In this document: positions 13,353 through 50,725 of the stretch, piece by piece
Layout of the letters: every line of letters starts with the position of its first letter
How positions within the stretch are numbered: the first letter of the stretch is position 1
Assembly: GCA_001244265.2 (NCBI GenBank)
Contig: LN717261.1
Span: forward strand, 310,001-374,000
Direction of reading: 5' to 3'
Length of the DNA stretch: 64,000 nt
Source of the DNA: Microbotryum violaceum
Lineage: Eukaryota
Translations under genes and position numbers: made by a program
Notes under the pieces: model-generated
The model's database searches: none
What the model was told of the DNA's origin: nothing
Seen by the model: only the letters and a program-made list of their open reading frames with translations

Positions 13353-13403
13353 CGAGCGCGCCAAAAACCTCGATCCTCAGCGGGTTTCACACTGGGGTCG
13401 GTC
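13353..13403 (+). repeat. Outer half of left inverted repeat of the KDZ element
   Basis: CGAGCGCGCCAAAAACCTCGATCCTCAGCGGGTTTCACACTGGGGTCGGTC is the reverse complement of ~50675-50725 with 2 mismatches. Confidence 0.9.
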
Positions 13404-13959
13404 TAAGCTCGAAACCCTCCACTCTGTGGAGGGGCTTGTACCTCATCGGCGCGTTTGGCTGAGTTGCCTATCGAAATTTGGCCCAGAAAAGTACCACCTT
13501 GCTGTAGCATGGCAAATAAAAACAACCTATACAATCGTTGCAAAAGGGTTACTCTTATTCTATTTTTTCGAGCATATACCCCAAGGGAAGACTCTTGGGA
13601 ATCCTATTCATTGAGCTACAGCGGTGAGAAGTCGTTATTTTCGGCTTGGAGCTGGCTCGCGCACGGACCCAGAGGGACGGTTCTTCGCGCCGACGTGAAT
13701 CAGCCAGCCGAGCCTCACCGGTCTCACCTTCGGTCCACAACGCCAGTCCACGACGTCGCTACCGCCCTCATGATTCACCATGCCCGTACAGACGCCAGCG
13801 CTTGTCAAGGGCACACCTCGTCGGTCTCCATCGATTGAGTTCAGAGAGTCGGCCTTACGATCAGCTTCGAGGGCAAAGCCAATGACATCGAGGGACCATC
13901 AATCAACCAAACAACCCCGAACTGCCTAACCCTCGCTCTCGGGCTGCTCTCGGGCTGCT

Positions 13960-16226
13960 CACTGGAGATCACAATTAACTCAAGAAGATCACGTTGACCC
14001 GATTGAGTTACGCAAGAAGCTCGGACTCCTCTTGGTCGACAAATCTGGCGAGGACTTGAGAAGAAGGAGTAAGTGTGGCAGATGCGTTCGGTAGTGGGAA
14101 ACGCCTTCAGCGGCCTGGAGGAAGGGAAACATGCGCTCCCAACAATGTATGAGTCGACCAATGTCTCCTTACAAAGTGGCGTAATATGCTTCCTCGGAAT
14201 CGACCAAGTTGCGCAGCCGAAAGAGCGATTCATAGAACACGGGAGCCTTTTCCATGTTCACCTTTGCTCGCTGCACAGGGTCAGAGTGCAAGTATCGATC
14301 GAAGACCTTCATGATCGCGACATCGAGTCCAGTGAGGTGGGTTTGTCTGAGCTCGTCAATTTATGTGAGGCCAAGTTCTTGTCTGCATGCATAACAGAAC
14401 GAGCCGTTAGCAGCGCATAACATCAATTTGCCCTTGGCTTTATGTGCATAGTTTGGGACCATATCACTCACAGAAGACAGCTCAACAGCCCCAGTTGAGC
14501 GGTGTCTCGAAGCAGCCTTTCCATCGGGTTGTAGTCCTTGATTTTTTGGGGCTCCGGTCCTTTGCGGCCAAGTAGATTAGCGGTGATGAAAAGCGACCTC
14601 GATATTTCGATCCTTCCAACGGATCCTCAAAGTATCGTCGGTAGATTGCTGCCCCAATGCACCACTGCAAATGAGCCACGCCTGGAACTCTGTAATTGTA
14701 GTCCCTAGTCCATCCTACAGTCGTCGAAACGGAAAGCGGTTCCTACGAAGTGACTCGACAAGCATTGAGGTCCCGCCATCACATCCGAGTATCCATAGAG
14801 AGTCCGCTTCTTCTTTCTCCGAGAGTCCGAGTTGCGTCCGCAGACGGTTGATGACTTTTGCTACATCTGCGGTGGATGTATCGGATTCGTCCATCATCTG
14901 AAGCAAAGTAATGTCGGGTTTTCGGACATCCAGTTGTTCGATTGGCTCTGGTCTGCACCGAGAATCGTGAAGCGTGAGGCCGAGATGAGGAACCAGTCGA
15001 GCAAGCGCTCGATACATCTGGGCGGAAAACCCTGTGGCGAAGGCCTCCTCAGACGCTTCAGCGGGCAAGGGAAGGTTTACATCGACCGGAGGTAACAATG
15101 CTTGATGCGCAATGTATGCTTGAAGGTCGTACGCGTTGGCCACGTCTCCATTCTGAACGTGCGCGTATCCCAAAGTTACATGAAGCGGCTCGGAACGTCG
15201 ATCAAGGTGTTCATCATTGACGTGATGTGCAACGTCGATGTTGTCAAGAGTGACATGGAAGTAGCGGGTTGACCTGATCTCCTTCAGCAACGCCAGATTG
15301 GCCATTGTCAGGCTCAAAGCTGCTCGTCGAGTTGTACGGCGAGAGGTCGTGAAGCCACAGTCGTACAGAAACGTCGTCAACCGATCGTTCGCTCCACAAG
15401 CGAGAGCCATGAGACCGTTGCGATGCTGCATAGCATTCTTTCTTCGGTTACACGCGAAGGCGATCTGACCCATTATCGCGCGACAAAGCTGCGGCAAGTC
15501 AAAAAACGCCATCATCAATTTGACTTTGACCAAGGGGCTGAGCTCAGGCAATAATTACGCACAAATGATACATGTTGCTCCTTGGTAATGAGAAACACCC
15601 CCGTTCTGCATCCGACCCAGAGCTATCCTCTTGAGCGTCCTCCATGTCAACGTCCGTAGAATCCGAGCTGAGTTTGTCGCAGTTTGATTCTTCGACTGGT
15701 GGTGGGTCTCCGCAGTGAGACAAGAGGTTACGGATGTGTCCACTGATGAAAGAGTTGCTTTCGACTGTTGCGTCGAGGCGTGCGTCAATCTGATCAGATG
15801 CCAAGACTTCAGGAGCCATGTCGTGGCTGGAGACGAAGGCGGATTTGGTTCGTTTCATCTCTTTCACAATGATTGAGTCAGATTGTACAGGTAGGATGCA
15901 AGTGTTTAAGAGGCTCTGCCGCGGTCTTGTATACTGATCTGATATGTTGGAGTGTTACCCACCTGGTTGGCGATCCAATCATTGGTTCGGCCTCGTACGT
16001 CTGGGCCATGTTCGCAGGCGAGTTGGAGTTGTATAATGAGATCAAGTACATGCTTGAGCCGGGTCCAATTACTGTTGAAGAGCTTTGGCCTATGATTGTG
16101 CACCCTCGTGTTGCGTTGATGGGCTGAAATACCACGAGAGGTATTGACATAGCGAGAGCTTGTGAAGCCGAAACCGAGCGAATAGATCCGCCTGACGGCG
16201 GCGATCCTGGCGAGTCGTCGAGTCAT
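13960..16226 (-). pseudogene. DUF6589-like transposase, disrupted
   Basis: Motifs NRRKNAMQHRNGL, VTLDNID, GCDGGT, VPGVAHLQW, GDIGRLIHCW..GVSHY; several in-frame stops and frameshifts. Confidence 0.65.
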
Positions 16227-16319
16227 AGCGTCTGCGGTTCCGCGTCATTCGGAGATAAGCGCGGTGTTGCATCGAGAACAAGCGAAGAGCATAGTACCGG
16301 GAAGACGAGTGATGCGGAA

Positions 16320-16381
16320 TGCGACGGGAGAGAAACCGATGCGCACACGCTGCGACGGGAAAGAAACCGATGCGCACACGC
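16320..16381. repeat. 31-bp tandem repeat (2 copies), subterminal in the AcademH-like element
   Basis: TGCGACGGGA(G/A)AGAAACCGATGCGCACACGC x2. Confidence 0.85.
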
Positions 16382-16472
16382 CGAAGTGCGCAAGCCGGCG
16401 GCTGCAGCAGCCGTGCTGCCGCTCGGACCACTCGGGACCATATTGACCAGAGGGAGGGCTTAGTTGAGCTTA

Positions 16473-16526
16473 GGGTTGGTCGCCCAATACCCGGATAGCC
16501 AGGACTCCCAATCCCGGGGCGGTCAA
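16473..16526 (+). repeat. Inner half of left inverted repeat of the KDZ element
   Basis: GGGTTGGTCGCCCAATACCCGGATAGCCAGGACTCCCAATCCCGGGGCGGTCAA matches the reverse complement of 50630-50683 with ~3 mismatches. Confidence 0.9.
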
Positions 16527-17404
16527 CAGCGGCAGATGCATTATACGGACCGACATGACTTCGTTGATCAAGCTATACCCAGTACTCAAAAGCTATGATG
16601 TTTCCCAATTTTAAAATAATGTGGAACACTGGTGATTCGGGACATCTCAACCGCGCAAACTTTTTGGCAGACAGTGGCCGTGGCTTGTGCTACAGGGCTT
16701 ACATAGCTTAGCGCACGTCACGTGTCGGCCGCGCGCCAGCGCAGTCCAGCGCGCGCCCTTTTCGGACGTCCAAGATGCCCCAGTGTTCGCCTCTGCCTCT
16801 TTTCCCCTCGTTGTGCGCGCACTTTTCGACCAGCGTTGTACAAAAGCTGCCCAAAACATATCAGTGAGTTCCAGAGGTGTATGCTCTCTGCCGCGCCGCG
16901 TACGTTTTCCCCGCGACTTTGGCGTTGACCGTCGCTTGCTAATAGCTCAGCTCACCTCCCAGCTGAACTGGCTTGCATGATGTCAGACTAACGTCTGACC
17001 ACCCAAAGCCATCGTACTTATCCCTAGGCTCCTTCTATTTCACCTCTGTTGTGATATTACCTTTCTAGGTGCCTAATCTCCGTTCGATACTGGTCCAAAA
17101 TACACGTACGTCGCGTCGTTCTTGCCCAGCTCAGCCCACGTGACTAGTAGTATACGACAATCGATCGACCCTGGCTTCGATTGCTCCTGCTGGAAGTATC
17201 GACTGACTACTCTCGGACCTGATCTCTTCCTAGCTTCTGAGAGTTCTATCTTCCATGGAAGGCACGATGGATTTCTTGTTCAGTCCCGTCTCAACCGCCA
17301 ACGCGATGCCTGGTCTTTCCATGTCCAATCAGTCTGCGCGTGGCCAGTATCCCAATCCCAGCTCCTGTTCAACATTCGATCAACGGTCTTCAGGCGGCCA
17401 CGAC

Positions 17405-17652
17405 ACATGTAAGGATATATCCTTACACATGAGTTAAGGTCAATACACAACCAAATCTGTTCATCTTGATATTGTAACATCAACATATAACTATTTCTGA
17501 ATGGTGTCTGCAAGGACTACATGATAGCATGTGTATTGCAAGACTTGTAGTGATTCAAAATTTCTGTGTCCTTACCGCACCCTCGTATCCTTACATGTGT
17601 CGACATGTGTAAGGATACGCCCGCGCGCGCATGTGACATGTGTAAGGATACG
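17405..17652 (+). repeat. Left MULE TIR, rich in palindromes and (T)AAGGATA motifs
   Basis: Contains the perfect palindrome TGTAAGGATATATCCTTACA and the near-palindrome TATCCTTACATGTGTCGACATGTGTAAGGATA. Confidence 0.9.
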
Positions 17653-17796
17653 CCTGCGTGCGCACGTGACATGCATAAGAATACGCTCACGCGCAAAGAG
17701 CACTGGCTGCTGCTGGTGAATAATTGACTCTTTCCGCACACCAGTGGTTGTCAAAGTATCGCCATGCCCATTTTGCACTAAGTTTAGTTATACATA

Positions 17797-19698
17797 CTAT
17801 TGCTGACCGCTATCATAGCCCCTACTGTGCACTACATTAGTGATTGACAAGGCCAAAACTTCACTGGACCACTGGGGCACAACTTTGTGAGTCAAACTTG
17901 CCATCAACATGAATGTTCCCCACTGTGATTTTCTCCAGAAGCACTGCACCGCTGGAAAACATTGTAAGAGGAGAGCATCGTCAGCTCTACTGATCTGCTT
18001 TTTGGCGTTCCTGACACTCACTATCTCGCTTTCATGAAAAAAAGCCGACGCATCTTCCATCTTCCAGACACCTTGTCCTTCTTCAAGAGTCCCTTTGGGT
18101 GGTAGACTTGACACTTTAATGCCGATATCGGTAGGATCGGAGGGCTCATGGTATAGACTCCACATTTCGTGCCACTGCCGCGTTAGCATTAGGTTGAAGG
18201 CTTGCAAGAAGTTCAATGACTCCTCTTCTAGCTCGTAGAAAAGAACGGAAACTAATCCGCCAGCGTTCCTGTCCCCTATCGGCCTAGCGAGAGAGCCTTT
18301 GATTGCGTCGAAATGATAGCCTGCGGCCTCTTGCCCGTATCCAACCGTCGCGTTCGTAACGAAATGTGAATTGTTGATGTTGTACACTCCTGACCGAAGG
18401 CGCCAGACCATCTCTGGCATTTGGTCCGAAACACCGAAGCGTAGCTGAGCTGGGGCCAGTGGATGTTCCGGGTAAATATTGTTGATGTTGATCACGATCA
18501 CACGGGGGAGCGAGGTGATTGAAACGAATTGCACGTAAGAGCCTCCGGGGCAATTGCGCTTGTGATGCCGACGGCCTGAGTTCTTTGCCTCTGTGTACAA
18601 TTTCAACGGTTGCCCAACGATTGAGGCGAGGACGTCCGACAACGTTTCCAGCGAATGCGAAGGCAGGTGGAGACTTGAGATGAGAAGGGGCCAGTCAACC
18701 ACAAAATGTCGTCTTGGGGACACCTCAATCTGAATGCAGTTGCAGGCAGTGCAATACCCGGCCCGTTGAAGATGTAATTCGACGAGAGTTCGGTCGGGAT
18801 CATTCAACGTGACAGCGCTTGGCAGAACCGGATGATCGACGGTGAACGAGTGAAGTGTCTCGAGCCAGGTCTGCCGAAAAAAGTGATGATTAGCGTCCAG
18901 TTTTAATCGTCTTGGGAGGGCGGGGTTCGCTAAGTGATTGACTGACTACTGGGCTACTATAACTCCCCGCTTAAATGGAGTTGTAAAATGGCTTCCGCGC
19001 TCTTTCGACATCCCAACCACAGTGGAAATCATCCGTTCTCGTAATTGTGTGTATGCTTCAATGGCGTTCGCCGCCGGTTTCATATCAAACTTTCGAGCCA
19101 ATGCTGTGTATTCGCGAATCGCATCCCATGGCTCGAGTGCCAAATATCGAGGGCGGAGCCTCAACACCATCTCATCGCCAAGTGGAGGAATCACGTAGGC
19201 CCTATGGGTGTTAAGGATATCCAGACACTGCAGCCATGGTTCCAATCCGTTGGCGACCGAGAGCAATGCGATAAGCGTTGAGTCAATCCAGCAAGAATTA
19301 TCGCTCCACGGGCCTTGGATAATGACGACTGGCCCGTCTTCACCTGATCGAAGCCAGAAGTCTGCGTGGAGCTGCACAATCGTGCTACCGAGCGATGTCG
19401 ATGTCGGTGTCTTGGGCGGTGCGAATTTTACCCTTGGTGCAGATCTAGAGTCCTCTGGGAGCTTGTCACTGGTGCGCTCGAGTGACGTCGACGCCCATGC
19501 AGGTTTTGACGTGGCGATTTCTACCTTTCTTGCAGATTTCGATGGCGCCAACCCCGACTTGGATGCAACCATGGACAGGGGAATGTCGAATACGGACGTA
19601 CATGTCCTCTTTGCATCCGATTGTGATTCAGGTTCCGACAAGAGGAAGGCCAATCGTTTTCGAGGTATCCGGTGTTTTCGACCACTGGGGGCTTCCAA
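17797..19698 (-). CDS. USP/C19-like cysteine peptidase domain (probably the 3' part of the MULE gene)
   Basis: Cys-box-like WSDNSCWIDSTLIALL (Cys 19291-19293), CTAC..NCPG zinc-like pairs, SLPRVIVIN, His-box-like GVYNINNSHFVT..YHFDAIKG; probable intron ~18950-18870. Confidence 0.55.
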
Positions 19699-20166
19699 AT
19701 TTCGTGCATTGTGCTGCGCAAGAACTTTGAGACGGAGGATAAATCAGAGCAGGATTTCCGTCAGCTAGGCCTCAGCGCCTCTGCACTCAGTCAACAGTCT
19801 GGGGCGGAGGCGTACGTATTTGGGACAACTCCATTTCTTCATTGAGCGCCCTCACAGCCATAGGGACAACGGGGACTTGTCGCGATGGGCCGCTGAAATC
19901 TGAGCGGGGAGGACTACCTTTCGATTTGGAATTGGACGTTTGATGGAGCTTGATGGAGCGATCCGTCGGGGAATGGCCTCGGATGAATTGCAATGAATTG
20001 AGGGCGTCAATCCAACGTCCTCTGATGATTCGCTCGAACTATGCTTGTCAGATGGCGGGTCAGGAACCTTGCGCTTGTGGGGGTAATCAACACGTGTTGA
20101 GCCCTTTTTGGAGGCCATTGACTGCGCAGTGGGCCCATTGCCCTGCCTTGACCGGTTCTTTGGTTG

Positions 20167-22867
20167 CTACCGGGAACGATTTGACGTGGAAAAAGGTAAT
20201 CTGGTTGATTCGCTCAGTGGTGGTGTTGCAGGACCCTTTGACAGGCCTGAAGGTCCTTGTGGTGACTCAGAAAACCCGATGCCAGCTAGACGAGCAGGTG
20301 CAGCGAACGAGATCGAAGGCTCAGGCATGTTGGCGTCACTGACGTAGGATGAAGGTACCCGATTGCGTGACTTGATCTCTTTTATATGAGCGCGGACGTT
20401 GCCTTGCTCGTGATAAGTGGAACTCCTGACATAGCCGTCTGTTTTCAAAGCAAAGGCGAGAATGGTTTTAGATGAGGATAATGGGTTGGTGGTAACGCTA
20501 TGCCAGGGCCTTACCGGTCGCATGACTTTCAATTCGGTCTATCATTTTCGCGAAGTCGATAAGTCGCATCACCCCTTCCACCGGTCCAAAGCGTTCACCA
20601 CCACATGAATGGATTAGGCGCCAGTGGGAAGATTCCACCGCATTTGTTGTGGTAGCCACGCATCTTTCTGCGGATCCATTGAGTTCCTTGAATACCACAT
20701 TTCGAATCGCCGGTCATGTCCACCATTTGATCCAATTCTCTGACACAGGAAACTCATCGATTGTCCGCTTTGCCATGGACTCAATCGATGCATGGGACTT
20801 CGCGTTGCGCATGGTGTTGACCAGCATTGCAAATCGTTCGCGCTCCGCTTGCGTACTGAGATGTCGGACCCTGAACCTCCTGACCTGCTCAATGAAGTGA
20901 GAGGCGCACCCGCTTGCCGCCTTCTCGCCAATCTGAATAGCCTCTGCAGTCCACTGTGACACCTGATTGGGTGTGACGTTCAAGCGTCCCACATCTGCGG
21001 CCTTGCGTGCCACGTACCAATCCGAAATGGCTTGGCGAAGACCCGAAATCTGCGCGCTTGAATAATCGACAACAAATGTGACTCCGTTGATGATGTCCTC
21101 CACGCTATAATTGGCATCGTCAAGAATCTGGAATAGGTGCGCAAAATGTCGGCGGTAGAAGCCCGATCGCTCGTGGTTGCCGACGGAGTACAGGATCGGA
21201 AACCCGCGACGAGCGCTTGGCGAATAGCAGACCGTGGCGAGCAACACCCAATTCTCGCGAAAGTAGGTGTTGTGAGCGTCGGTAGGCCATCCCAAATTGC
21301 CTTCGACTAGCCGGTCGTCGATCGTTCCGAGAGCCTCGCTTTCATCTGAGGAGCCTGGATGCCAAATGACGTCTCAGAGTCGGTTAGCGAATTGGAGGTG
21401 ATCTTCGACTTCGACCGCGACCCATCGTTCCTGGGTTGCTTCCGAGGGTCGGGATCGTGTATTTGCTCGGCAAGTGGCTGCCCTTGGCGCTGTCCCGGTA
21501 TTTCGATGTACGCGAGGCAACCGGCATTGGCAACAGCTTCAATAGCTGACATCAACGTGTCGGGTAGGGCTCCATTACGCTTACTGTGGCCCACTCTTGG
21601 TGCGTATCTCGAGATTGATCGAGTGCTGTCGAATACAGGGCAAATTTCAGAGGCGGACGGCCGATGACGAGGGTCCTGCGGAAACGCGGTCATTTGTCCC
21701 ATGCGCAGCTCGGCGGCCGATGCTTGTGGAGCGGCTTTACGCAATTGTCGCAGCTCTTCCAGATGTTGCGGGGACGGACGCGACAGCGGAGGCGGAGGAT
21801 GCAAATGGTACCCTGAATGCCAGATATATATTTCCCCCGGGCATTCCTCACGCTGCCCTCGGGCAATCGTAGCGGAGCACAGGATGTGCCTCATCGGTCC
21901 GTTACAGCTTGTGATTGGACACGGCGGTAACTCGTCTGAAGGCCTCTCAACGTTTGGAGCGAGGTGCTTGCGGGTTGCAGCCTTCTTGGGGCGTCCTGTG
22001 ACGAGCTGTGGAGTCTCCTCCTGAAACAACTTCGACTTACTCGCTGTCGACAGCGATGTGTGAGGTCGACGCTTGCCAGGGCATGATTGATCACAACAGA
22101 CGAACACGCCCATGCAACGTCTTTTGCTGTACTTGCTGTACTCGACGCTTGCATCCAAACGCGGGCCTTTCCATCGTCCTTTTGAATCGGTTCGAGATGA
22201 TGACACCGAGAAAGCCCACATGTGTGACAAGCCACCGCTCGAGCTTGGATCCATACGAACAATGAGGACGTCGCCCCAAGTCCCGTTGGGCCGCCAAGGA
22301 TCAAGAACAATCTCTTGTGGGTATGCTTCGAGCATCAGGTCTGTCATCGTTGTCCTTCCTTCACTATATGTTGGTAAATTCGCATGATCTTCACTGTTGA
22401 CGAGCTTGTCATCCGTTGAATCTGGTTCGGTGTTCGGACGTAGATTGCCGGAGATCCTGTCGCTTGGAGATGCTTCACGCTTTTCCCTGACAAGCAAGTC
22501 GTGCTTGGAAGCAGAAGGTGCGCCACTTGAGACAGGGGCATCTACCCGGCGTTGAGGTCTTGTAGTGATGTTTACGAATGGGAGTCGAGCCTTGATGTGC
22601 TCGTAGACCTGTGACAGTTGCAATCAAGAGTCAGCTCAGCGACTAAAGCTCAACGACGTAGAATCCGTCAACTCATGAAGCTATACGCACTCTCAAGGTA
22701 ATGGTTGCTTCTGCTGGCAACGAGTCGATGTCGAGTACGAAGCCGGTCAACCCGAGAACCTTGTCCGAAGAATCGATTGCAGCAGTAAATGCTGTGAGTT
22801 GGTCGTACCGGCAGGAGGCAAGACATGGAGTCAAGTGAGTAGATGATGTAGCCGCATCGTCAATCAC
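20167..22867 (-). pseudogene. MULE DDE transposase with GCM-like zinc DNA-binding domain, disrupted
   Basis: GCM-like KRRCMGVFVCCDQSC..RP..CPITSC..HILC..HSGYHLHPPP; catalytic core TDAHNTYF, VVDYSSAQ, GCASHF, TTNAVESSHW. Stops at 21307 and 20714; further 5' exons are likely up to ~24500. Confidence 0.8.
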
Positions 22868-24872
22868 CCAGTAGTCGAAGCAGGAGTCCTCTGTACAAAG
22901 GCACAGATAAGTCGCCGAATTAAATGGTTAGTAACTGGCTGAGTGGCCTGTCAACATTGCTTGGGAACCGATCTAATCTTGTCTTGCATACCTTGGAGAG
23001 CCAGGCCAGTTAGCTCAGCAACCTCTTCCAACATATCTCATAGATAGACAAAACAATGTCCTGTCTCCGTGAAGTTGATGGACACCAACAGCGTAAATAT
23101 CATCGGCACGTTAGTCGCCAAGAGAGGTTTTAAGGAAACCTCAGAGTTGACCATCATCACTAAGAAAAGCAAGCGGACAATATCAATTTTCAGTGAAGCC
23201 GTTTGTTAAGCAGGCTGGGAGAGCACATCTTGATGTAAAAGTGCACCACCTATAGAGGTGGCAGCGGTAGGATGATACGCAGCGCAGTGTCGGAACCGAT
23301 AGTTGAGGAACAAGTGAATGAAGAAAAGATAAACCAGGGAGTCTGCTTTGCGAAGGCATAGGCCCACGCGCAAGACTATAATCCACTTAGACACTAAGTC
23401 TAATCCACTGCCTTAAAACCAATCGAGCCTCCGGGCGCGCGCCTCGCCTCGTTACCGATGGCCTACCATCTAGACAACACATGTGGCGTACCTTCAAGCT
23501 TAAGAGTCGTATGTTGATGCTTGGGAGGAATGGAGCTGTCCTTTGGAATAGCCTTGGGTTGTGAAACGCTTAGACAGGAGAGGTTCGGAGCTAATGCTGG
23601 TGAAAGCGAGCCGACTTGGAGGGTAGAAGCGGAATTCACACTCTCAACACTGCTTTGACTGCGCAGCGACGGCCAACCGGGATCGCTGTTCTGGGAGCAC
23701 AGGAGAGGCATTGTTGACTTCTCTTGCTTGATGGTGTGGTGGAAGGGAGTGTTGTGGGCGAGCCGAGTGGAACAAGGTGAGTCATTGTCATGGTCGTCCT
23801 TGTGATCGTTGTGCTTATCGTCCACATAATTGTCACAGTTCTCCTCGCAGTCCTCTGCGGACTTGATGTGATTAGGCAAGTCGCTTGTACGATCGGTGAT
23901 AGGAAATCTCCTGTTGGAGTCGGGGATTTCGATAGCCGCGGTGCGAACACCGTGCAGGTCAATGCTTCAGCATGAAGGTCGCCAGAATTGTCCTGAGGAT
24001 GCGCTGAGTTTGCCGACTCGGGGGCCGACTGGCCGTTTCCTTTCCTGATTCGACGATTGGTTCCTACCGTTTGTTGTGGGAAATTAGTGGGGTCTGCGGT
24101 CCAGAGGGACTTATGGTCTTAGCAGTGGCGCGGGCGCGCGGGTGTTGTGCGGGGGCCGGTAGAGGCGGCAGAGGCGGCTGGTTGTTTACATGAGATTGCG
24201 TCTTTTTGGCCTAGCTGTATTTTCTCTCTTCTCCACCACGCACTCGATATCACATCTCGCCTAGTCGCTCTGTTACAGTTGATTGACCTTTGGCGACCCA
24301 TTATCTCACAATAGGTCATCCATCGACGCCACGTAACTAGAGACGCTCCTACAACAACACCGTTGATTGGCGTTTGATGCTTGGGACTTTGAATCTCGAC
24401 TTGGGAGTCCACCATTGGGGCCGGTCTCCAGCTCCAGAACGAGTCCGAGCCCAGGGCCCGGCGTCACGGTCGGGAAGTTGGCGGTTCCGCAATCTCATTG
24501 ATGAAAGATTTGAGTCCGTGCCTCCTGGCACAAAGCTGGAGGTCGCAATTGGCTGGTTCGCAAAAGTCAAACAGTGCCACGGTGTTGACGTCGATGGGCG
24601 GTGTGGGGACAATTAGGTGAACAAACGTGAACAAAGGCTTCGAGCTGAGTGCGCCTCCTGTCGTTCCACATGCCACGTGCGCGCGCGGGCGTATCCTTTT
24701 ATTTTTATTTTTATTTGATAGACTTCATTAACAGCATACTTATATTAATACCTAGAAATCTTCGGAAAAGTCGGAGGGAATGCTGTTACGCACACTGGCA
24801 GAAGCCAGTAGTGTAGGACTCATTGACCCTGAACCAGGATCAACCATACCCACTAAAACCCCCTTTGGTGTC

Positions 24873-35511: not shown

Positions 35512-35530
35512 TGACGTGCAATTTCAACCA

Positions 35531-37316: not shown

Positions 37317-37595
37317 TGTGAGATTGACAACCTCCTGTGTTTCCTTCTCGCATCATGTCTCCTTTTCTCGGTCTCGTTTTACTTCCTTTGACCTGCCTTT
37401 CACACCTTAGCTCTCTTCCTTTCTGGGCTGGGTCCGTGCGCCTGACACAGGTGGCTGGCCCAGCTGCGCGCTCACCTGAGCCAACTGGCTCCGCGCTTCT
37501 CTTTCTCCTGCTCAAGCAACTTCTTGGTCTGGTCTCCTTGGTCCGTCGATCAGAGCCTTACCACCGCTTGAGCAGGTGTTCGTCGCAACTCCATA
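37317..37595 (+). repeat. Copia-1 5' LTR (TG...TA)
   Basis: Direct repeat of 42100-42376; differences seen are a 2-bp indel and one G/A. Confidence 0.97.
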
Positions 37596-37607
37596 GGTTA
37601 TGAGCCC
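37596..37607 (+). other. Primer-binding site GGTTATGAGCCC (internal tRNA-iMet, half-tRNA type)
   Basis: Directly after the 5' LTR; same type as the Ty5 and Drosophila copia PBS. Confidence 0.85.
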
Positions 37608-37632
37608 AACGAGCTACCAGGGCGGCCACCCC

Positions 37633-40600: not shown

Positions 40601-42081
40601 CCAAATTCGACTCGCTATCCCGTGATTTCTCGGCCTTCACACCCATTGATGAGTCTCTCGTGCCCGTGGACTCTAAGGTTCTCGGTTCACGCTTTGTCTT
40701 CCGCACGAAATGCGACCAACACGGCCGTATCAAGTCTTACAAAGGCCGACTGGTTGCTCGCGGTGACTCTCAGCGTTCAGGCATCGACTTCGACGAGACC
40801 TTTGCACCCGTTGCCAAGTTCACCTCCATTCGCGCACTCCTGGCCCTTGCAGCCGCTCATGGGTACCACATCCACCAGGCTGACATCGACAAGGCCTATC
40901 TCCACGGTAAACTGGACACACCTCTGTACATTCGCGTGCCCGAACGAATCTACATGCCCGGCAAGGTCCTCCAGCTGCACCGGTCCCTCTACGGCTTGCG
41001 CCAGGCTGGACGTATCTGGAACGACGAGATCGACTCCGCTTTGTCGGCTCTTGGCTACGTCGCCACGGAGTCTGACCACTGTGTTTATGTCCGAACTGCC
41101 GGTGATGAGCGCCACTATATCGCACTCTACATCGATGACTTGCTCATGATCAGCCCTTCCCTCCCAGAGATCGAGCGTACCCTCCAGGGCCTCGAGCAGC
41201 GCTATGGTGTCAAACGCCTAGGTGAGGCAGAGTACGTCCTTGGTATCCAGATTCGGCGTTCTGCCGATGGCGCCATCTCCCTCAGTCAAGAGCAGTACCT
41301 CAAGGACGTCCTCGCTCGTTTTGGTATGTCCGATGCCCACCCTGTCGCCACGCCCATGCAGGCCGATCTCCGCCTCGAAGTCGAGCTTCAGCCTAGCCCA
41401 TTCCCGGATCGCACTCGGTACCTGCAGGCAATCGGCTCCCTCATGTACGCATCGACCGGTACTCGCCCCGACCTGGCCTACACCGTCGGTTACTTGGCTC
41501 GGTTCTCTCAGTCACCATCTGCCGCTGCCTGGGGCGCTGTCAAGCACACTTTTCGCTACCTCGCTGGCACTCTGTCTCACGGCCTCCGCTACGCTCGCGG
41601 GGATCCAGCGCCCTTGGTTGGCTACTCCGACTGCAACTGGGGTGCTTGCGTCCTATCTTCAAAGTCGACCATGGGTTACACCTTTGTCTTCGCAGGCGCG
41701 GCCGTCTCGTGGTCATCTCGCCTCCAGTCCCGGGTTGCTGACTCTACTTGCAACACCGAGTACCTTGCCTTGTCACATGGTGGCAAGGAGGCTATCTTCC
41801 TGCGTCAGCTCTTTGGTGAGCTTGGGCTTCCTTCCTCCCGACCTGTCCTCATCTATGGCAACAACCAAGGTGCCAATGCTCTCACCAAGAATCCGGTTTT
41901 CCACGCTCGCACTCGGCACATTCGTCTCCACGAACACTTTGTCCAGGATATGGTCTCCCTGGGCAACAACAGTGTCCAGTACATCGCCACCAGCAAGATG
42001 ACGGCCAATATCTTCACCAAGGCTTTGTCTCGCGATCTGTTTGCTCGGCATTGCAGTCGACTTGGTGTCTGCTCTCCCTGA
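37633..42081 (+). pseudogene. Copia-1 gag-pol
   Basis: WLLDSGANRHM, HRRFAH..CNAC, VHVD, IRSDNGGEF, QQNGRVERANR, YKGRLVARG, SLYGLRQAG, LYIDDLL, GYSDCNW, IFTKAL. Frameshifts in gag; TGA at 40058-40060. Confidence 0.95.
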
Positions 42082-42099
42082 TACTCGAAGTCGGGGGGG

Positions 42100-42376
42100 T
42101 GTGAGATTGACAACCTCCTGTGTTTCCTTCTCGCATCATCTCCTTTTCTCGGTCTCGTTTTACTTCCTTTGACCTGCCTTTCACACCTTAGCTCTCTTCC
42201 TTTCTGGGCTGGGTCCGTGCGCCTGACACAGGTGGCTGGCCCAGCTGCGCGCTCACCTGAGCCAACTGGCTCCGCGCTTCTCTTTCTCCTGCTCAAGCAA
42301 CTTCTTGGTCTGGTCTCCTTGGTCCGTCAATCAGAGCCTTACCACCGCTTGAGCAGGTGTTCGTCGCAACTCCATA
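42100..42376 (+). repeat. Copia-1 3' LTR
   Basis: Direct repeat of 37317-37595, preceded by a G run. Confidence 0.97.
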
Positions 42377-43278
42377 GTTAAGAGCCACTAGTAGTACGAT
42401 CAAACAACTAGTACTTGAGGTCAAGCATTGGGTGATCATGTTTCTGTGGCTTTCCAAGTTGAATAACGATTCTGCTGCTGCATACCAAGACTCTTGGCCC
42501 TGACAAATAATTCTCTGGAACGAGCCCTTAGCTCTCTGGATCTCTGAAACTCAACTTTGGAGCCGGAGTGCCTAGCCCTGAGCCTCGAACGCTTCGACAG
42601 CCACACCAACCCAATACACCATAGCAATGTCACTATTTACAAGTACATCAAGACTTAGCAATCGAAGCAAACGCCCTCCTGCCATGAAAATGAGATACAC
42701 ACCGCGGAGTAAAAAGGCAATCCTCCTCGGGTCGGTTGTCGCGCAAGTAGAAAAAGCCGCGAGCGTGAGAGCGCGCGCATCTGCGATTCTGCGAGCGTGA
42801 GAACTGTTTGGGAGCGCGCGTAAGCAACTTCCGAGGCGCGCAAATCGTAAAGAGCGGGGAGTGCGGGGTTCGGAATTTAGCTATGAAAATTGAAAAAATT
42901 GAAATCATTTTTCGGGTTTATTATTTATTTTTGGAGAGAAACCAAAAAGCGCGTAAGTTGAGTAGGTTGCGCGCGCATGAGCGCGCATGAGCGCGCTGTA
43001 GCGCGTATAATGCCTTGTCCGTGCGTGGATACGGCGGGGCGAGCGAGTCTAACAGTGAGCGAAACGCGCGTGGACCGCCAATAGGGGCCAGAAACAGATC
43101 TTTTTCCTGGAAAGCGCGCAACTCCGCAGGTTCCAGAGCGCGTTAGAGACCAAAAGTGCGTCCAAGAGTGAATGAAGCGCGTATGAAGGCCTTTTGGCGC
43201 GCAATTGCACGATTGTCGGCGCGCGTACAAACGAATTGTAACGCGCAAGTAGGGGCCGGGCGCGCAAATCCATTTGTT

Positions 43279-46200
43279 GCCCAAACGGCGGCCCATAGAT
43301 CTCTACGTCGATTCGGTCCCGCTCGCCGACCACATACTCGACGACTCGTTGTCGCCCGAAGAATCTAGGGAATTGCATCTTGATGCTCGTGCATCTTACC
43401 TCATCATTCGATCTCTCGATCCTGCCAACAAGTCGTTGATCAGCAACTGCTCCACGGCGAACCAGCGCTGGGATGCTCTGCGCACCTATCATCTAGGCGA
43501 GCGCAACTCGCAAATTGCCTTGATCTTGGGGCAACTTTCAAGGATGCTCTATATGGGTGAATCTTCGATCTCCTTGGAAGATCATATGATCAAAATTCGC
43601 GACCTCAACCTCAAGGCGAAGCAACTTGGCTACCCGAGGTCAAACACCGAAATCGCGTTTCAAATGCTGAACTCGGTAACGGATCCCAAGTGGGCAAACA
43701 CAATTGAGGCTTTATCCCTCACCAGCGACCCTACATCGACCAAGATAATAGCACGTATAAAGGAGCGTGAAGTCACTTTCGCGCTCACAAACCGCATTCA
43801 AGGCGGAACGTCTCTTCTTCTTCCCAACGACCCCGCAACCGTTCAGACTGTTGCGGCCAACTCTGCTTCGGATCCCAAGGGATCGCGCAAGACGGGGAAG
43901 AAATCTCGGAACAGGCGCAAACCTACCGACACTTGCACTCGATGCAATGGAAAAGGTCATTGGGCCTGCGACAAGGAATGCCCCGGCAAACGCCCTGAAT
44001 CTGTCGCATCGGTCAATGAAGGACATAATTCCAAGTCTGGTCCTCCTTCCCTTTTTGTAGTTGGCGCTCACGTTGCACGTGAAATGCCAACAGCCTCTTC
44101 GTCTCGTTATTCTACGGCTCTTGCCACTGCGAGAGATCCCACTTCAAAGCTTGAGTGGGTTGGCGACTCTGGAGCCATTCGCCATCTGATCGGCGATCGC
44201 TCCCTCCTTCGAACCTTCATTCGAGATCCCATTGCCGTTCAAGTTGCGGATAGTTCGATCCAAGAAGTCGAAGGCTATGGTGAACTCTCCGTTACTACCA
44301 AAGAAGGCAACATTATCGACTTCAAGAACGTCTACTGTTTGCCTGGAGCATATTTGGCCCTCATCTCGTTCTTTTCACTCTGTGATAACGGATTCGAGCT
44401 TTGTATGATGGATGGTGGTAAGACTATTAGTGTCTACTTGGAAAACAAGTTTGTCTGCGCTACCGAGCGCGACACCGCCTACTACTTTGATTTCACCATC
44501 TACAACAAACCCGTGGCTGTTGTCACGCGCGCTTCGGCTGGTGCTCCGCTTATGTGGTGGCATCGTGTCTTTGGTCATCTTTCACCTCACACCATTCTCA
44601 ACATGGTATCTACCAAGATGATCGTCGACATCAAGATCTCGGATGAAACGATTCACGACTGCGAGACCTGCATCGTTGCGAGCTCTCGCGCTGCACCGTT
44701 TCAACATGTCAGTCGTGAGCCGACCGAGGTTCTCTACCGCGTCTTCATCGACCTCGGTTTTGTCGATGTTCCAGATCGCAAAGGACGATTTGTCTATCTT
44801 GTCATCGTTGATCAACTTTCCTCGATGAAATGGACTTATCCCTTGACTTCCAAGTCCGCTGCCGAAGTTCTCCAGGTGTTCTGTCGCTTTCAAGCTCAAG
44901 CGGAACGCGTCACCGGCAAGACTATCAAGTTCGTTCGTTCGGACAACGGCGGGGAATTCCTCAACCGGTCTTTTGAAGCGGAGTTTACTCGACTTGGTAT
45001 CACCCACAAGTTCACTGCTCGCTACACCCCCGAACAAAATGGCAAGGCTGAATGTGCAAATGGCTCGCTCTTTGCTATGGTGCGGGCAATGCTCAAGGAT
45101 GCTGGACTTCCAGGCTCTTACTGGTCCTATGCTCTAGATATGGCAACTTTCATCGCCAATCGCATGCAGCATCCTCGCTTCAAGAAGAAAACCATCTTCG
45201 AGATCTTCTATGGCAAGAAACCGAGCGTCGGCCATCTCCGACCCTTCGGTGCTATCGCCTTCGTGCTCTTGCCTCGTCAGCTGCGTCGCAAGCTTGACGA
45301 TCATGCCAAGAAGGGCATCTTTGTAGTATATTCCGGCGAGTACAACTACATGGTTCTCGTCAACTACACTACCTCTCCCAGGGTCCTCATATCTTGTGAC
45401 GTCACTTTCATCAACTCGCTTTCTGAGGTTCCTTCCGCTCCGGCCGACGTCGATCGTGATCCGGAACACTTTGCAGTTGAGGAGATCTTCGAATACGACC
45501 TCGTCCCTTAACTTCGTGACATTCGACTTGATCCTGCGTATCTTCCAGTGCAGGACGGTCCTCTCGCGCCGGCTCCCAGGCACGCTCCCGATGATCCGGC
45601 TCAGCCTCAGGGTCCCTCTGATGCTGCGGAATTGGTCCAAGACAACGTCGACGATGATGATGTGATCATTATCGGTGAACCCGTACGTGCAGAATCTCCT
45701 CCTCCGCCTGAAGACGAACTCGAGGATCTTGTCCCTCAAGTTCCGAACGATGGCTACAAGTATCGAGCGTACAACATCGGTCGCAATCCTGGTCGATTCG
45801 AGGATGTAAATGAAGAAAACATCCTTCCTCCTGGCTCTCGACGCGTTGCAGCTCGTCTTGCGGTGGGGTCCAGCGAGGCTTTCTCTGATCCACCCGAACT
45901 CATCGCATCTGTCTCTCCTAATCACGCTCCACTCCCTTGATCTTACTCCGAGGCTATGGCTTCTGTCCATGCTAAAGAGTGGCAAGCGGCTACCGATAAG
46001 GAGGAGATCGCCAAGTTCATTTCTATGGGTGTTCTTAAGGTGGCAGCTCTCCCTCCTGGTGCTCGTGCACTTGGAACCAAGTGGGTCTACACGTACAAGG
46101 AGGCTGTATCTGGCGTGATCATTGGCTGGAAAGCTAGACTTGTCGTTCAAGGCTTTGGTCAACGCAAGGACATTGATTACTTTGACATCTTTGCTCCTGT

Positions 46201-47497
46201 CTCGTCGATCTCGACGATCTTATTCCTGGTCGCTGTCTCTTCGGCTCTCGGATTGCATCTGGAGCAATTCGACTACGAGTCGGCTTTCCTCAACGGCGTC
46301 ATGACTGAGGATGTTTACATCAAGACTCCTCAAGGTTGGCCCGTACCAGTTTCTTCTGGCGCTCTCAAGCTCTTGAAGTCAATTTACGGAACCAAACAGG
46401 CACCTCGACAGTGGAACGAAGCGCTAAATTCGCTGATGAACTCGCACGGCTTTACTCGTTCCAAGGTTGATGCTTGCCTCTATTTCAAGTTCTCTGGCAA
46501 GTCTTCCATCTTCATCTCTATCTACGTGGATGATGGACTCGCTGCGTCGAACGATCAAAACTTCCTCAACTCGGAGATTGATGCGTTCCATGCGGTTTAT
46601 AAGCTCAAGCGTCTTGGTCCTGCCAAGGTGTTCCTCGGTCTGGAGATAGCTCGTTCAGAGCACTACATCTTCGTTCACCAGTCGAAGTATATTTGCGGGC
46701 TTCTTGAGACGTACGTGTTCACAACTACGTCCAAACGCGGTGTACAGACGCCTATGGAGGACAAAGACCAGAAGACTTCTTCACTCCCATTCGACGATAT
46801 TACTCTCTATCAGTCGGCTGTGGGAGCTCTTCAATACGCGGCTCAACGCACTCGTCCCAATATCACCAAGGCTGTGCGTGCGGTGGCGAAGCGTGTCGCG
46901 GCTCCTTGCGAAGGTGATTGGATCGCTGTCAAGCGAATCTTCCGTTACCTTACCTCCTCGATCGATTATGGACTTCTGTACGTATCCTCGAGCTCTACTA
47001 CCTTTGAGGTTTACTCCAATGCCTCGTGGGCCAACGACTGGGAAAACGTCAAGTCTGTGGGAGCCTACGCCGTCATTCTTGCTGGTGCTGTAATCAGCTG
47101 GCAATCGAAACAAAAATCGATCGTCGCGACTTCGACTACCGAGGCCGAGACTCTTGCAACTTCTGCTGCGGCTAAGGAGGCCGTTGGGCTCCGTCAATTG
47201 GCTGCGGAATTTCGCATCCCTCAAGGTTCTGCTACTTTGATCCATGAGGACAACGAGGTGTGCATCTCTATCGCACGCAACCCTGCTCATCGTGGTCGTA
47301 CTAAGCATTGGAACGTCCACCACTTCTACGTTCGCAAAAGGATTGAGGTCAGCGATATTCTACTCAAGTACTGTCCGACAGATCTCAACACGGCCGACGT
47401 CCTCACCAAGGCTTTACCCAGAGCAAAGTTTCTCAAGCATCGCGGTGGACTTGGTATGGTGTCGCTAGCTTCCTTAGCATGTGGGAGTGTCGTATGA
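43279..47497 (+). pseudogene. Copia-2 gag-pol
   Basis: CTRCNGKGHWACDKEC, WVGDSGA, WHRVFGH..CETC, VRSDNGGEF, WKARLVVQG, KSIYGTKQA, IYVDDGL, ADVLTKAL. Breaks at ~45511 and 45940. Confidence 0.93.
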
Positions 47498-47762
47498 GTG
47501 ATGCAGGCGGAAGCTAGGCACGCGGGTGCTTCGGCTGGGGTGCGGGCGCACAGCTGAGGGTTGGCTGAGGCCAGGTGGATGGCTGGATTAGGAAGGAGGT
47601 TCGCTTAGCAACAGAGGCTTTTCTTAGTTACATCTTGGGGCTACTCTCTTGTTCTTCTTCTCGTCACTTGATCTTACAACTTTGTGGTCCTGACTTTGGC
47701 ATGTTATCACAACGCATCTCTGCGCCGCTTCGGAGCGCGAGACTATCAAATTCACAACAACA
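43279..47762 (+). mobile_element. Second, unrelated Ty1/Copia element (Copia-2), 5'-truncated
   Basis: Starts inside gag; no 5' LTR or PBS seen. Putative 3' LTR from TGTCGT at 47488 to ACAACA at 47759 or 47762. Confidence 0.9.
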
Positions 47763-48374
47763 TTTACCTTTGGCCCCTATCATGGTCTGAACCTCGCTCT
47801 CCTGAAGGTGCGGATGACTCGAGGCATGAAGAGCCTATGTTGGGGAGCTAATAGGGAACTCGTGGTCCGTTTAAAATACTTGACATTTTTGGCCTCCAGA
47901 AACCGGCAAAAAGTGCAGTGGTACCCCTTGGCGATTTTGGCGATTTTCGATTTTGGCGATTCTGAGGGTGGAAGCAGAAAAACCCTACAGGGTAGCAGAA
48001 AACCCTTCTCTTGTGCCACGTAAGGTATAATGAGATGAGATCGAACTGGTCGAAGGCAAGAAGAGGTGCCGAATACTGTGTCTTGGGGTGAAACGCGTGG
48101 GTGGCCGATTGCAAATTAGATCTGGGTAAGGGTGGGAGCAAGCGCCGAGTAATTACGACATGTTTAAAGCGCAGGATTAATCTATTTAACCTGCAGTAAG
48201 TGATACCTGGACGCCTTCGCCATCGGTGCAGCCGAACTTGTTGGGAAAAAGTTGAGGGTCCAGCTCGACTTGACAGGGCCATTGATGCGCGAAAGCGCCA
48301 AGACACTTGTGGCAAATTCTAGACGGGGGGCAATTTAGGCACTAACTAGGGCTCATTTAGGCACTAATCATCTC

Positions 48375-50339
48375 TCTACACAGGGCGAGAAACGAGTATG
48401 TTCAGACGATTCGACCGACCACAAGAGAGAATTAGATACCTATACGCGCCTTCTGTAAGCGATGCTTGAGGTTGCAGGCAATGTTTTACAAGACCCCAAT
48501 TCTGGCTTCGGGCTGTTCTTGTTCTGAGACGTGCTTGATCAGAGCCAATGCATAGTACAGCCTACAATGTCGAGCCACCCCCAATGAGGAGGACAGAAAT
48601 TAAACACTGCAACGATCTTGCGAAGATGGTACCGTCATACGTACGTACCGCCGCTCCTCTCAAGGTTGGACGTCTCGGAAACCGCGTTATGCCGACACAC
48701 GCACGCCACAAGAGCCGCGTCGATTTTCCCGGCCAGAGCTTCTCAGCGCCATCGTCAGCAATTTTCTAAGATTCTGTGCATGCCTGTAAGTGGAGGTGTT
48801 AGAGGATTAGGGCAGAGCAGGGTGTTCTATGGACTATCAGGCTGAGCAACGTACCTTCTTGGACGGTGTCGGCGCCCGCTCGACCGCCTCTTTCATTTCC
48901 TGCCGCGCTGATGAACAAGTCCGGCGTGGTCGCTTGTGGGTCATACTTGGCTGCATGGTTGCGCCATTGCTGAAAGCTTCCATCATGCGCGAACAAATGA
49001 TCAAGTGTAGGTGCCCGGTTTGGCAGCTTCAATGTGTTGGTCCAAATTCTGCAGGACACTTGTCAGCAAATGAACCCTTTATGTGGAAGAGGCGATTGTC
49101 GGATCCGGTCTCGTGTGCGGCCAATGCTCGGAACTCGTCGAGCTGCTCGTTGCTATTGTGATCGAGGCTCGCGACCCTAGAGAAGTGCGCATGCAGGGGA
49201 CTAGATTGGCACCGTCCCACACAAGACTCATGAATCGCGCTGAATTTGACCTCAATTTACAAACTGATGAGACGCCAGCCCACCTGAATCCCCCCATCCG
49301 CATCTTCCACAATGATCATCTATCCCTTGGGTCATCCCATCAACGGACGAGGGATCAACAACCCAGCAAGATTCGACCATTTGTAGAGCTTGGAATGCGA
49401 AAGCGGTCTCAAGGCAGTTGCACTCATAAGCCAGTCTGAGCCAGTCGTTCGGCGTATGTGATTAGGGGATCACCACTAATGGATCAGGGACAGACAGAGA
49501 CCTCGTGGGGAAAGCCTGTGCCAAATGGAGCCATTGAAAACACAGGATCCCCGTTCCCCAGCAGATAAAGCTGAAGAAAGATTCGGAAGTGCTTACGACT
49601 GGTGGCGCCATGGACCAGAATGGAAAGGACATGTGTGCCTTTGCGGTCGCGCGGCGGCGGGGCCACCTCGTCGGCGATCCTTAATCCGTTCTCGACCTCA
49701 ATGATGCGCGGATTGAGATGCGATTTTGGGCACGCCACAAACGACATGTACTGCACCCAGAGTCGAGGTCGTGCCTGCTTGCTGAATGCCTCCTCGCGCA
49801 CAAGGAAAGCGAGGTATGTCCTGTCCACCCTTTCAAAGGTATGAATGAGGGTGACGATGGGATGGAGCTCATTCCTGAGGCGGTCCAGCGTTATCTGAGA
49901 CATGTTGCGTGAATCGTAGGCGTGCAGTCGGCAGGGTTCGAGGATAGGAGGAAGTGTGCGTTGGCGAAAGTTTTGTTCTAACCACCATCACCTTCGTGCA
50001 TGGCTCTGTCGTCGAGATCTGAGTGTTCTCCGGCGCCGTCATCCTCGTCTACCCCAAAGTAGTCGCTATACTCGAACGCAGCGGCAGCGAATGCGGATGC
50101 CGGGTCCGGTAAGAGTGGGACTAGGGGAGTGGGAGTCTGTACCGAATTCGACGTCGATGATGATAAAGCTGATGATGCGGTGGGTCTTGGTCTATCGAAA
50201 CGGTGTCCACTCCACCAAAGGGATCGTAGACCTTGACCTTGGCGCAGGTTGGAGCACACGACGCGCTGGGCTGATCGTTTAGGTCCTGCGGCCTCAGCTT
50301 GCGTGGTCTGAACTGTCCAGGGATGAAACGGCGAGTCAT
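48375..50339 (-). pseudogene. KDZ transposase (CxC1-like) 5' remnant
   Basis: Minus-strand reading across introns and frameshifts gives ADKCPAEFGP, LFAHDGSFQQ..PDLFI, ACTES*KIADD, LVACVCRHN..NLERSG, LYYALAL, IGVL*NIAC. These follow the KDZ consensus order CPxCFG, DGNF, CRHD, SGE, YDIxC. Confidence 0.8.
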
Positions 50340-50629
50340 CGTGTCGGAAGATCCAGTGTCGATGTACGGCTGCCGCTCGCGATGTGGAAGGAGACGAACA
50401 GGCACGTGTGGTTTGTGCGCGACTGGCCGTTGGTCGCGCGACTTCGATCACGGGTTGCACGTGACCGTGAAGCACCTGGCGCAGGGTGGCAGACTCAGCT
50501 CGGAGGCCACGAGACTCTGACAAGACGAATATAGTCGAAGTGGCATCACATGGCAGCTTGGGAAGTATTTTTAGGGGCTTGGATCCATCGCACCAATCTC
50601 GTAGTTGGACTACACACACTGCTTTCCCC

Positions 50630-50725
50630 TTGACGGCCCCGGGATGGGGAGTCCTGGCTATCCGGGTGTTGGGCGACCAACCCCAGTGTGAAACCCGCTG
50701 AGGATTGAGGTTTTTGGCGCGCTCG
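50630..50725 (-). repeat. Right inverted repeat of KDZ element (uninterrupted)
   Basis: Reverse complement equals 13353-13403 joined to 16482-16526. Confidence 0.9.

Follow-up and report, generated by a model that had tools for sequence, protein, structure and literature searches.

In Cryptococcus, transposons of the superfamily Kyakuja-Dileera-Zisupton (KDZ) are reported to have terminal inverted repeats (TIRs) of 139–241 bp, sizes of 6.4–11 kb and extra open reading frames (ORFs) (PMC12810828; bioRxiv 10.1101/2024.08.15.608186), and the target duplications given for Cryptococcus KDZ and for Zisupton elements measure 8 bp (4–8 bp) (PMC12810828, PMC12730594). In the anther-smut fungus Microbotryum, nested transposon copies over 10 kb and a hypermutation directed at TCG were reported by Duhamel et al. 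(2023; PMC10502011). DNA transposons with inverted ends have been counted in this genus only as a small unnamed class; a search of the literature available found no description of KDZ elements in Microbotryum, and the main text of PMC10502011 contains 0 occurrences of KDZ, Zisupton or Kyakuja. Here, a stretch of 64,000 nucleotides (nt) from Microbotryum violaceum (contig LN717261.1, positions 310,001–374,000; hereafter the window) was analyzed, in which a 96-bp inverted repeat with five mismatches brackets about 37 kb (13353–50725) of nested transposons between a SYP1-like gene and a RhoGEF gene, with the remnant of a KDZ transposase close to the right copy. The two copies of the repeat (the arms) are most economically read as the two TIRs of a single old KDZ-family element, a reading that we hold to be somewhat probable, and the block that they enclose is an ordinary nested transposon cluster, not a mobile giant.

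The Inverted Repeat and Its Split Left Arm

An inverted repeat of about 95 bp around the SYP1–RhoGEF interval, with a left copy that becomes visible only after removal of a 3-kb insertion, had been claimed from inspection of the sequence (the original prediction), and both parts of this claim were borne out. The outer half of the repeat (13353–13403) is the reverse complement of 50675–50725 over 51 nt with two mismatches, and the inner half (16473–16526) is that of 50630–50683 over 54 nt with three mismatches, each with an E-value of 1.8e-16 when the window was compared with itself by BLAST. The outer 51-nt half is found at two places in the window at up to three mismatches, far beyond what shuffling yields (0/100 dinucleotide-preserving shuffles gave any match). 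A 37-letter pattern of the repeat had 0 matches in a metagenome scan.

The right arm is contiguous over its 96 bp whereas the left arm is parted by 3,069 bp (13404–16472). When placed on the right arm, the left pieces have 9 bp in common (50675–50683), and the insert between them is flanked by 9-bp repeats, GGGTCGGTC and GGGTTGGTC (13395–13403 and 16473–16481), and ends in a 7-bp terminal inverted repeat (TAAGCTC...GAGCTTA). This duplication together with the inverted ends indicates that the left arm was really split by an insertion, and the 3,069-bp unit is the footprint of a DNA transposon inside a once contiguous left arm.

Within the window, the arms are the sole partners of each other in the self-BLAST. 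The repeat does not extend outward or inward at either arm (word-7 BLAST), which leaves sharp edges on all four sides, and no resemblance is seen between the 878 bp that follow inside the left arm and the 730 bp inside the right one. Since the similarity stops after 96 bp, the arms behave like the differing ends of a single element rather than like two copies of the same end. Each arm stands precisely where transposon material gives way to a single-copy gene flank, with the putative start codons of the two genes about 500 bp and 820 bp away. At both ends the outer 51 bp are in place, and they are 96% alike; the two mismatches in this half fall on TCG/TTG or CGA/CAA sites, the right arm having the mutated state, and TCG-directed hypermutation is a pattern reported for Microbotryum genomes (PMC10502011). 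Separately, for the outermost part of the right arm (TTTTTGGCGCGC, 50711–50722) there is a 12-nt inverted partner at 50771–50782, 48 bp further into the host flank, which is probably a chance match in GC-rich simple sequence (BLAST E = 0.46).

The KDZ Transposase Remnant

A transposase remnant starts 290 bp inside the right arm and reads inward. It had been predicted at 48375–50339, just inside the right copy, and almost the same span was recovered by tblastn, in which residues 1–592 of P0004 (a Microbotryum intermedium protein of 757 amino acids (aa), Pfam KDZ 196 bits) align on 50339..48207 of the minus strand with E = 7e-116, spread over at least three frames. The remnant thus corresponds to the N-terminal ~590 of 757–931 residues, carries several frameshifts and is cut off after ..TDGEG. 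A hidden Markov model (HMM) of our own, built from 10 full-length KDZ proteins (1009 profile positions), matched seven pieces of ORFs within 48189–49987 (profile positions 111–544/1009, E 1e-13 to 4e-6) and had no match elsewhere in the window (next best E 0.64). The Pfam KDZ profile (PF18758), run directly on the window, stayed under its threshold (25.3 bits against a cut-off of 26.6, for 48189–48560 read through), as it did on a 1,100-aa frame (17.7 bits). Judged by these similarities, the KDZ transposase domain is present as a remnant and assigns the block to the KDZ superfamily. Further tblastn matches of KDZ proteins at 33545–33925 and 19771–21232 (E 0.4–2) were rejected, being unconfirmed by the KDZ profile and lying in regions that belong to other families.

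The CxC-type zinc-chelating domains (CxC1–CxCn) gave no match in the six frames of 47500–50801 at E up to 1, and none was found in the closest full-length relatives, P0004 and its cluster mate P0021 (M. intermedium, 931 aa, KDZ 196 bits). The KDZ and CxC1 profile searches that had been suggested for this stretch were therefore positive for the former, with our own HMM and below threshold in Pfam, and negative for the latter. When the nearest gene model (P0001) was searched against 1.84 billion representative proteins, 18 proteins were obtained at E up to 0.001; 12 of the 18 were scanned by Pfam, the KDZ domain being found in 11 of these 12 and CxC1 (E up to 0.001) in six, five of them above the Pfam cut-off. 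Additionally, M. intermedium encodes the KDZ transposase proteins P0004, P0005, P0006 and P0021 (up to 931 aa, 196 bits). No TIR elements are annotated for this species according to the main text of PMC10502011, and KDZ elements may have been missed by the annotation used there.

Copies at Other Loci and a Shared Truncation

The region 47500–53500, or part of it, is contained in 18 of 19 listed public runs (five studies, three coded organisms); the remaining run, X19, had a share of 0.00 and was set aside. Contigs of four runs (X1, X5, X11, and X14) were aligned to 42400–56000 at a likeness of at least 80%, and the figures given here come from the pieces and loose ends listed. Gene models of the KDZ remnant occur on at least seven contigs of M. 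silenes-dioicae (C001, C028, C003, C030, C007, C012, and C026) and at two loci of M. saponariae, and the contig depth on the remnant is about four times the single-copy level (218–230 against 56.5 in X1; 20.6 against ~5 in X11); the family of the remnant is thus repeated in the genome. An X1 contig of 22,048 nt covers 50676–56000 with 0 differences, which means that the right junction recurs in a second, independent set of data from this species, and an X11 contig of 933 nt lies on 49742–50676, reaching into the right arm, at ~4x single-copy depth. The single-copy X1 contig begins at 50676, 30 letters before the mutated site at 50706; given 31-letter words, another copy identical through 50705 would explain this start. 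We infer that the KDZ remnant and most of the right arm occur together in several copies. On the point of whether relatives carry this repeat at their ends, the answer covers the close non-autonomous copies only, which would then have most of the right arm along with the remnant. Behind 50725 a lone loose end is listed (X1, X5); in reverse complement it equals the left flank of the window, so it represents the left arm matched to the right one rather than a third copy. X14 has no listed piece on 50726–51014, a gap in cover that was given no weight. No second copy of the outer junctions was seen among the contigs listed, an absence that says nothing because further flanks share only ~30 letters with the arm.

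The copies also share the place at which the transposase is cut. In the window, the frame ends in ..TDGEG followed by VQVSLTAG, with the junction at 48213/48214. The same ..GEGVQVSLTAG is read in two M. silenes-dioicae models on different contigs (C001g00415 and C028g10457) and ..TDGEGVQI at two M. saponariae loci (Chr5-3 and Chr1-3), and at the junction position intact M. intermedium proteins read ..TDGEGCERLWSSL. A truncation junction common to several loci in two named species indicates that the truncated form was copied after truncation; transposition in trans and segmental duplication both stand as readings of this copying. An X14 contig departs from the window's sequence at 48214, and minus-strand translation of the loose end gives GEGCERLWSSL, in which the KDZ frame goes on. 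A longer and less damaged copy was thus kept in at least one lineage, X14 being a diverged one (2.4% different in the RhoGEF gene). The close relatives of the remnant retrieved in M. silenes-dioicae and M. saponariae are decayed gene models of 290–311 aa or shorter fragments, and no intact cognate transposase was seen among the relatives retrieved from close species.

It is conceivable, but quite improbable, that the copying of the truncated KDZ derivative and the foreign sequence beyond its junction to several loci in at least two named species means that KDZ transposases of Microbotryum mobilize, or recently mobilized, non-autonomous and even composite elements in trans. If this were true, the 37-kb block would be the largest of a class of KDZ-bounded composites, which would offer a route for moving other transposons and cargo. 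As a separate observation, Microbotryum has a second KDZ family (P0009 and P0022–P0030), a 10-member cluster at 90% identity with nine members from M. silenes-dioicae, seven of 982–1,111 aa and on different contigs; from its sequences this P0009 family looks recently active, and its identity to the present remnant is only 40%.

One Old Element or Several

The case for one old KDZ-family element is built on a 96-bp repeat whose arms have no other partner in the window, resemble each other over these 96 bp only and lie at the transposon/host borders, and on the KDZ remnant 290 bp inside one arm, which is multi-copy together with at least the inner part of that arm (contigs reach only to ~50705). 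The sequence ratios between the arms and the long TIRs, sizes and extra ORFs of the Cryptococcus KDZ elements also count in its favor. Several findings weigh against this case. Profile positions 545–1009, which make up the C-terminal half of the transposase, were found at no place in the window by HMM or tblastn; the interior has thus lost DNA and the element cannot be rebuilt by peeling off insertions. No target-site duplication of more than 2 bp was found outside the arms, where the left flank ends in CGCGCGCG and the right flank starts with TAGGGTGG (comparison by eye, with offsets, for lengths of 2–10 bp, the best being a trivial CG), and at 95% arm identity an 8-bp duplication would be expected to be largely preserved. 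Insertion footprints in the nest are limited to a clear one for the DUF6589 element in the left arm (9 bp) and a weak one for a long interspersed nuclear element (LINE; 6 bp, ATCCTT). The long-TIR element and Copia 1 (Table 1) lack target duplications, which points to rearrangement in the nest and weakens the argument from parsimony. Among the right-side contigs (42400–56000), neither a second full copy with both arms nor an empty site was seen. Lastly, depth is continuously raised from 47488 to the right arm, and the repeated KDZ-derived unit could be only 3.2 kb long.

The missing duplications, outside the arms and in the nest, and the missing C-terminal half are also what would be left if the arms came from two insertions of one KDZ family, brought together through ectopic recombination or an inversion between copies. 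The block would then be chimaeric, and the SYP1-like and RhoGEF genes would perhaps not be ancestral neighbors; partners for such recombination exist, given the number of M. silenes-dioicae contigs with the family and its raised depth. This history needs, however, a break within the element after which each outer end still faces a single-copy flank at an ordinary promoter distance, and there is no trace of a second KDZ body in the window. We regard it as unlikely.

The raised depth, which runs from 47488 to ~50676, bears on another arrangement, in which the KDZ-derived unit comprises only ~3.2 kb (47488–50725), the left arm is a solo end with no relation to it or a fragment of another copy, and the interior consists of independent intergenic insertions. 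Position 47488 is indeed a repeat border: the loose ends listed before it belong to five, five and four contigs of X1, X5, and X11 with an agreement of ~0.5 and unlike sequences, and their 30-letter consensus has no match in the window at up to nine mismatches. The common junction at 48213/48214 and the non-KDZ residues beyond it imply, in the same direction, that the sequence left of the junction was copied along with the remnant. But no inverted copy of the 96-bp unit occurs at 47488, where instead a TG follows a purine run as the pol frame of Copia 2 comes to its end, the way a 3′ long terminal repeat (LTR) would begin, and the X14 depth of 408 on 47394–47847 against 48 in the next bin indicates that two repeats of different abundance abut here. 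Two truncated copies facing each other from the edges of the nest are, moreover, less economical than one element, and this arrangement appears distinctly unlikely.

The original prediction had gone further and proposed that the block could move as a giant composite element. In its favor are the well-preserved outer 51 bp of both ends, the spread of a truncated derivative to several loci after its truncation and the continuing KDZ frame in X14, which points to a less damaged copy in one lineage. Nonetheless, an insertion breaks the left end 51 bp from its tip, only a frameshifted half of the resident transposase is left, the close relatives retrieved are equally decayed, and the near-full-length proteins of the P0009 family have only the low identity given above. 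A second copy of the outer junctions of the block is also lacking among the contigs listed (further flank contigs might not align). Present mobility is thus barely credible and this part of the prediction is unsupported: the block is now an immobile fossil, and nothing points to present mobility or to an effect on the host. The proposal that one KDZ insertion seeded a landing pad for other transposons fares better, being in line with the arms, their borders and the remnant beside the right arm, and at odds with the lack of a target duplication and of the C-terminal half.

If a single old element is accepted, its KDZ transposase, a DDE enzyme, would once have bound the 96-bp ends and pasted the element into the divergent promoter region of ~1.3 kb between the SYP1-like and RhoGEF genes. 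The element probably arrived as, or soon became, a non-autonomous deletion derivative. Later insertions (the DUF6589 element, the long-TIR element with the LINE, the P0039-like and integrase sequences and two Copia elements) would have survived inside it, the interior presumably being selectively neutral and the two promoters not. Deletions and TCG-directed hypermutation may then have erased the target duplication, the transposase's C-terminal half and the majority of the insertion signatures.

Flanking Genes and Nested Elements

The ORFs of the region match proteins of M. silenes-dioicae and M. saponariae at 90–100%, with nothing closer among the protein matches. Both flanking genes look intact (Table 1); a putative ATG at ~12855, the reading frame and a GTGAGT intron are seen in the SYP1-like gene, and the RhoGEF gene has single-copy depth in public contigs. 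Only transposon material was found between the arms (Pfam, tblastn and repeat evidence within the window), and the ratio of TTG+CAA to TCG+CGA is 0.73–1.72 in all segments between the arms versus 0.47–0.71 in six host-gene segments. The interval is free of host genes, as had been predicted, its sole long gene-like stretch (30828–35203) being a pseudogene of a multi-copy family. The accompanying count of at least six further elements from five superfamilies holds for the number of elements; five superfamilies are plausible, and the names of the DUF6589, long-TIR and P0039-like elements come from leads only.

Table 1. Coordinates of the features in and around the 37-kb block (positions in the window)
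Feature	Position	Strand	Evidence or remarks
SYP1-like gene, left host gene (F-BAR/FCH and muniscin mu-homology domain)	9755..12945	-	Pfam FCH 28.7 bits, muHD 145 bits
Left arm, outer half of 96-bp repeat (candidate KDZ-family TIR)	13353..13403	+	51 nt, 2 mismatches to 50675-50725
DUF6589 DNA element	13404..16472	-	3,069 bp, 9-bp target duplication, 7-bp TIR TAAGCTC, coding remnant
Left arm, inner half	16473..16526	+	54 nt, 3 mismatches to 50630-50683
878-bp stretch beside left arm, possibly KDZ-family element interior	16527..17404	.	No Pfam or KDZ match
Long-TIR element, 12,658 bp	17405..30062	-	TIRs ~17405-17616 / 29831-30062, 98-99% alike
Non-LTR (LINE) retrotransposon	24699..29830	-	RVT_1 55.1 bits (26457-27215); nested in right subterminal part of long-TIR element
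Pseudogene, P0039-like multi-copy Microbotryum family	30828..35203	+	tblastn P0039, most exons 95-100% identical
DDE integrase-like remnant (rva_4 / rve core with helix-turn-helix), two frames	35531..36755	-	Pfam rva_4 121.4 + 89.5 bits
Copia LTR retrotransposon 1	37317..42386	+	290-bp LTRs 98.3% alike; Pfam rve, RVT_2, SH3_retrovirus, Pol_BBD
Repeat, 869 bp	42387..43255	.	High contig depth
Copia retrotransposon 2 (gag, integrase, reverse transcriptase)	43256..47487	+	Pfam Retrotran_gag_2, rve, RVT_2
Repeat beginning with TG after purine run	47488..48213	.	Loose ends before 47488; right edge is the KDZ truncation junction
KDZ transposase remnant	48214..50339	-	tblastn P0004/P0021, own HMM, Pfam 25.3 bits
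Right arm, contiguous	50630..50725	-	Pairs with both left pieces
RhoGEF gene with PH and FYVE, right host gene	51544..54457	+	Pfam RhoGEF 64.3 bits, FYVE 50.1 bits

The element that splits the left arm has a DUF6589 match of 49.4 bits in Pfam on the ORF 14718–15554 (77.5 bits read through), which places this domain of unknown function inside a cut-and-paste transposon; a 31-nt tandem pair lies at 16320–16381 in the same unit. The stretch next to the inner half of the left arm (16527–17404) has a (TTG+CAA)/(TCG+CGA) ratio of 0.97, transposon-like and unlike that of host genes (0.47–0.71). It is followed by the long-TIR element, with TIRs of ~210 bp, no target duplication seen at its ends and 33-nt tandem subterminal repeats at 17602–17700. 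Inside it, a decayed 1,500-aa protein at 23154..17998 (tblastn P0033/P0035) belongs to a multi-copy, Microbotryum-only family (P0031–P0037, 749–1,561 aa, without Pfam domains). An Atlas lead (MULE PF10551, score 0.91) would make the element MULE-like; neither a Pfam MULE match nor a target duplication of the 9–10 bp expected of MULEs was found. The LINE nested in this element has an Exo_endo_phos match of 22.7 bits (27122–28333), below the cut-off of 24.5, an A-rich tail at 24699–24716 and the possible 6-bp duplication mentioned above.

The P0039-like pseudogene contains six stops within 11 aligned pieces. Its family (P0039, P0040, and P0043) comprises proteins of ~1,085–1,148 aa with no Pfam domain and paralogues on four M. 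silenes-dioicae contigs, and the Atlas leads for it are large clusters of basidiomycete hypothetical proteins (0.94) and, weakly, a HECT ligase (0.87). Models of this family occur on 0 of the seven M. silenes-dioicae contigs with KDZ-remnant models, a result that is neutral on a cargo relation because pseudogenes are often unannotated. The pseudogene and the rva_4 remnant stand tail to tail and may form one element. Six-frame Pfam scans of 30063–35533 and scans of the minus frames of 17405–24700 gave nothing credible, the matches to Phage_P2_GpU (E 0.09) and DUF6485 (E 0.37) being taken as chance.

Both Copia elements have the order gag, integrase before reverse transcriptase (RVT_2) expected of this superfamily, and LTRs were found only for 37317–42386, at which no 5-bp target duplication was seen. 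The repeat that follows (42387–43255) reaches a depth of 379–592 in X1, against 56.5 in the single-copy flank, and gave no Pfam match among its four scanned stop-to-stop ORFs of at least 90 aa. For Copia 2, no LTR pair was found and no DNA alignment to Copia 1 was obtained; X11 loose ends are listed before its start at 43256, where no 5′ LTR is recognizable. The repeat at 47488–48213 probably represents all or part of the 3′ LTR of Copia 2, as suggested by its TG start where the pol frame of that element ends.

Significance and Comparison with Known Systems

With the arms, Microbotryum has a first candidate for the terminal sequence of a KDZ-family transposon. The added value is modest and consists of this candidate KDZ terminus and of the evidence that a truncated derivative multiplied. 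The locus also illustrates how an insertion flanked by promoters can turn into a sink that takes up later ones, with the neighboring genes on both sides left intact.

Among described elements, KDZ1, KDZ2, KDZ3, and KDZx1 of Cryptococcus are comparable in their basidiomycete host, their KDZ transposase and, if the arms are true termini, their long TIRs (139–241 bp there, 96 bp here), and a large size with extra ORFs of unknown function is common to both. The Cryptococcus elements are described as intact, with sizes of 6.4–10.9 kb, a CxC1 domain and duplications of 4–8 bp, and were caught transposing (PMC12810828; bioRxiv 10.1101/2024.08.15.608186); the Microbotryum block, unlike them, has a frameshifted N-terminal half, no CxC1 match, no target duplication and 37 kb between its ends. 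The Zisupton/Dileera elements of Repbase (e.g., Zisupton-1_PGr of Puccinia graminis) are similar in having a host from the Pucciniomycotina and a transposase of the same superfamily (PMC12730594), but they make 8-bp duplications and some are described with TET/JBP dioxygenase genes, none of which were seen in the Pfam scans of the window. The end-to-end distance of the Microbotryum block is as large as 37 kb because other transposons inserted.

Non-autonomous derivatives of DNA transposons that arose by internal deletion are exemplified by the Ds elements of Ac and by dSpm. The KDZ remnant is like them in its internally cut transposase gene and in the copies at several loci with one deletion junction, and it differs in that these copies may have arisen by segmental duplication instead of transposition and in that the sequence beyond the junction may be LTR-derived. 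The classical nested transposon clusters are those of maize intergenic regions. Similar to the nested clusters already described in Microbotryum (PMC10502011), the present block has later elements inside earlier ones between intact genes, but unlike those clusters its outermost layer is a DNA transposon that can be recognized only by its two short ends.

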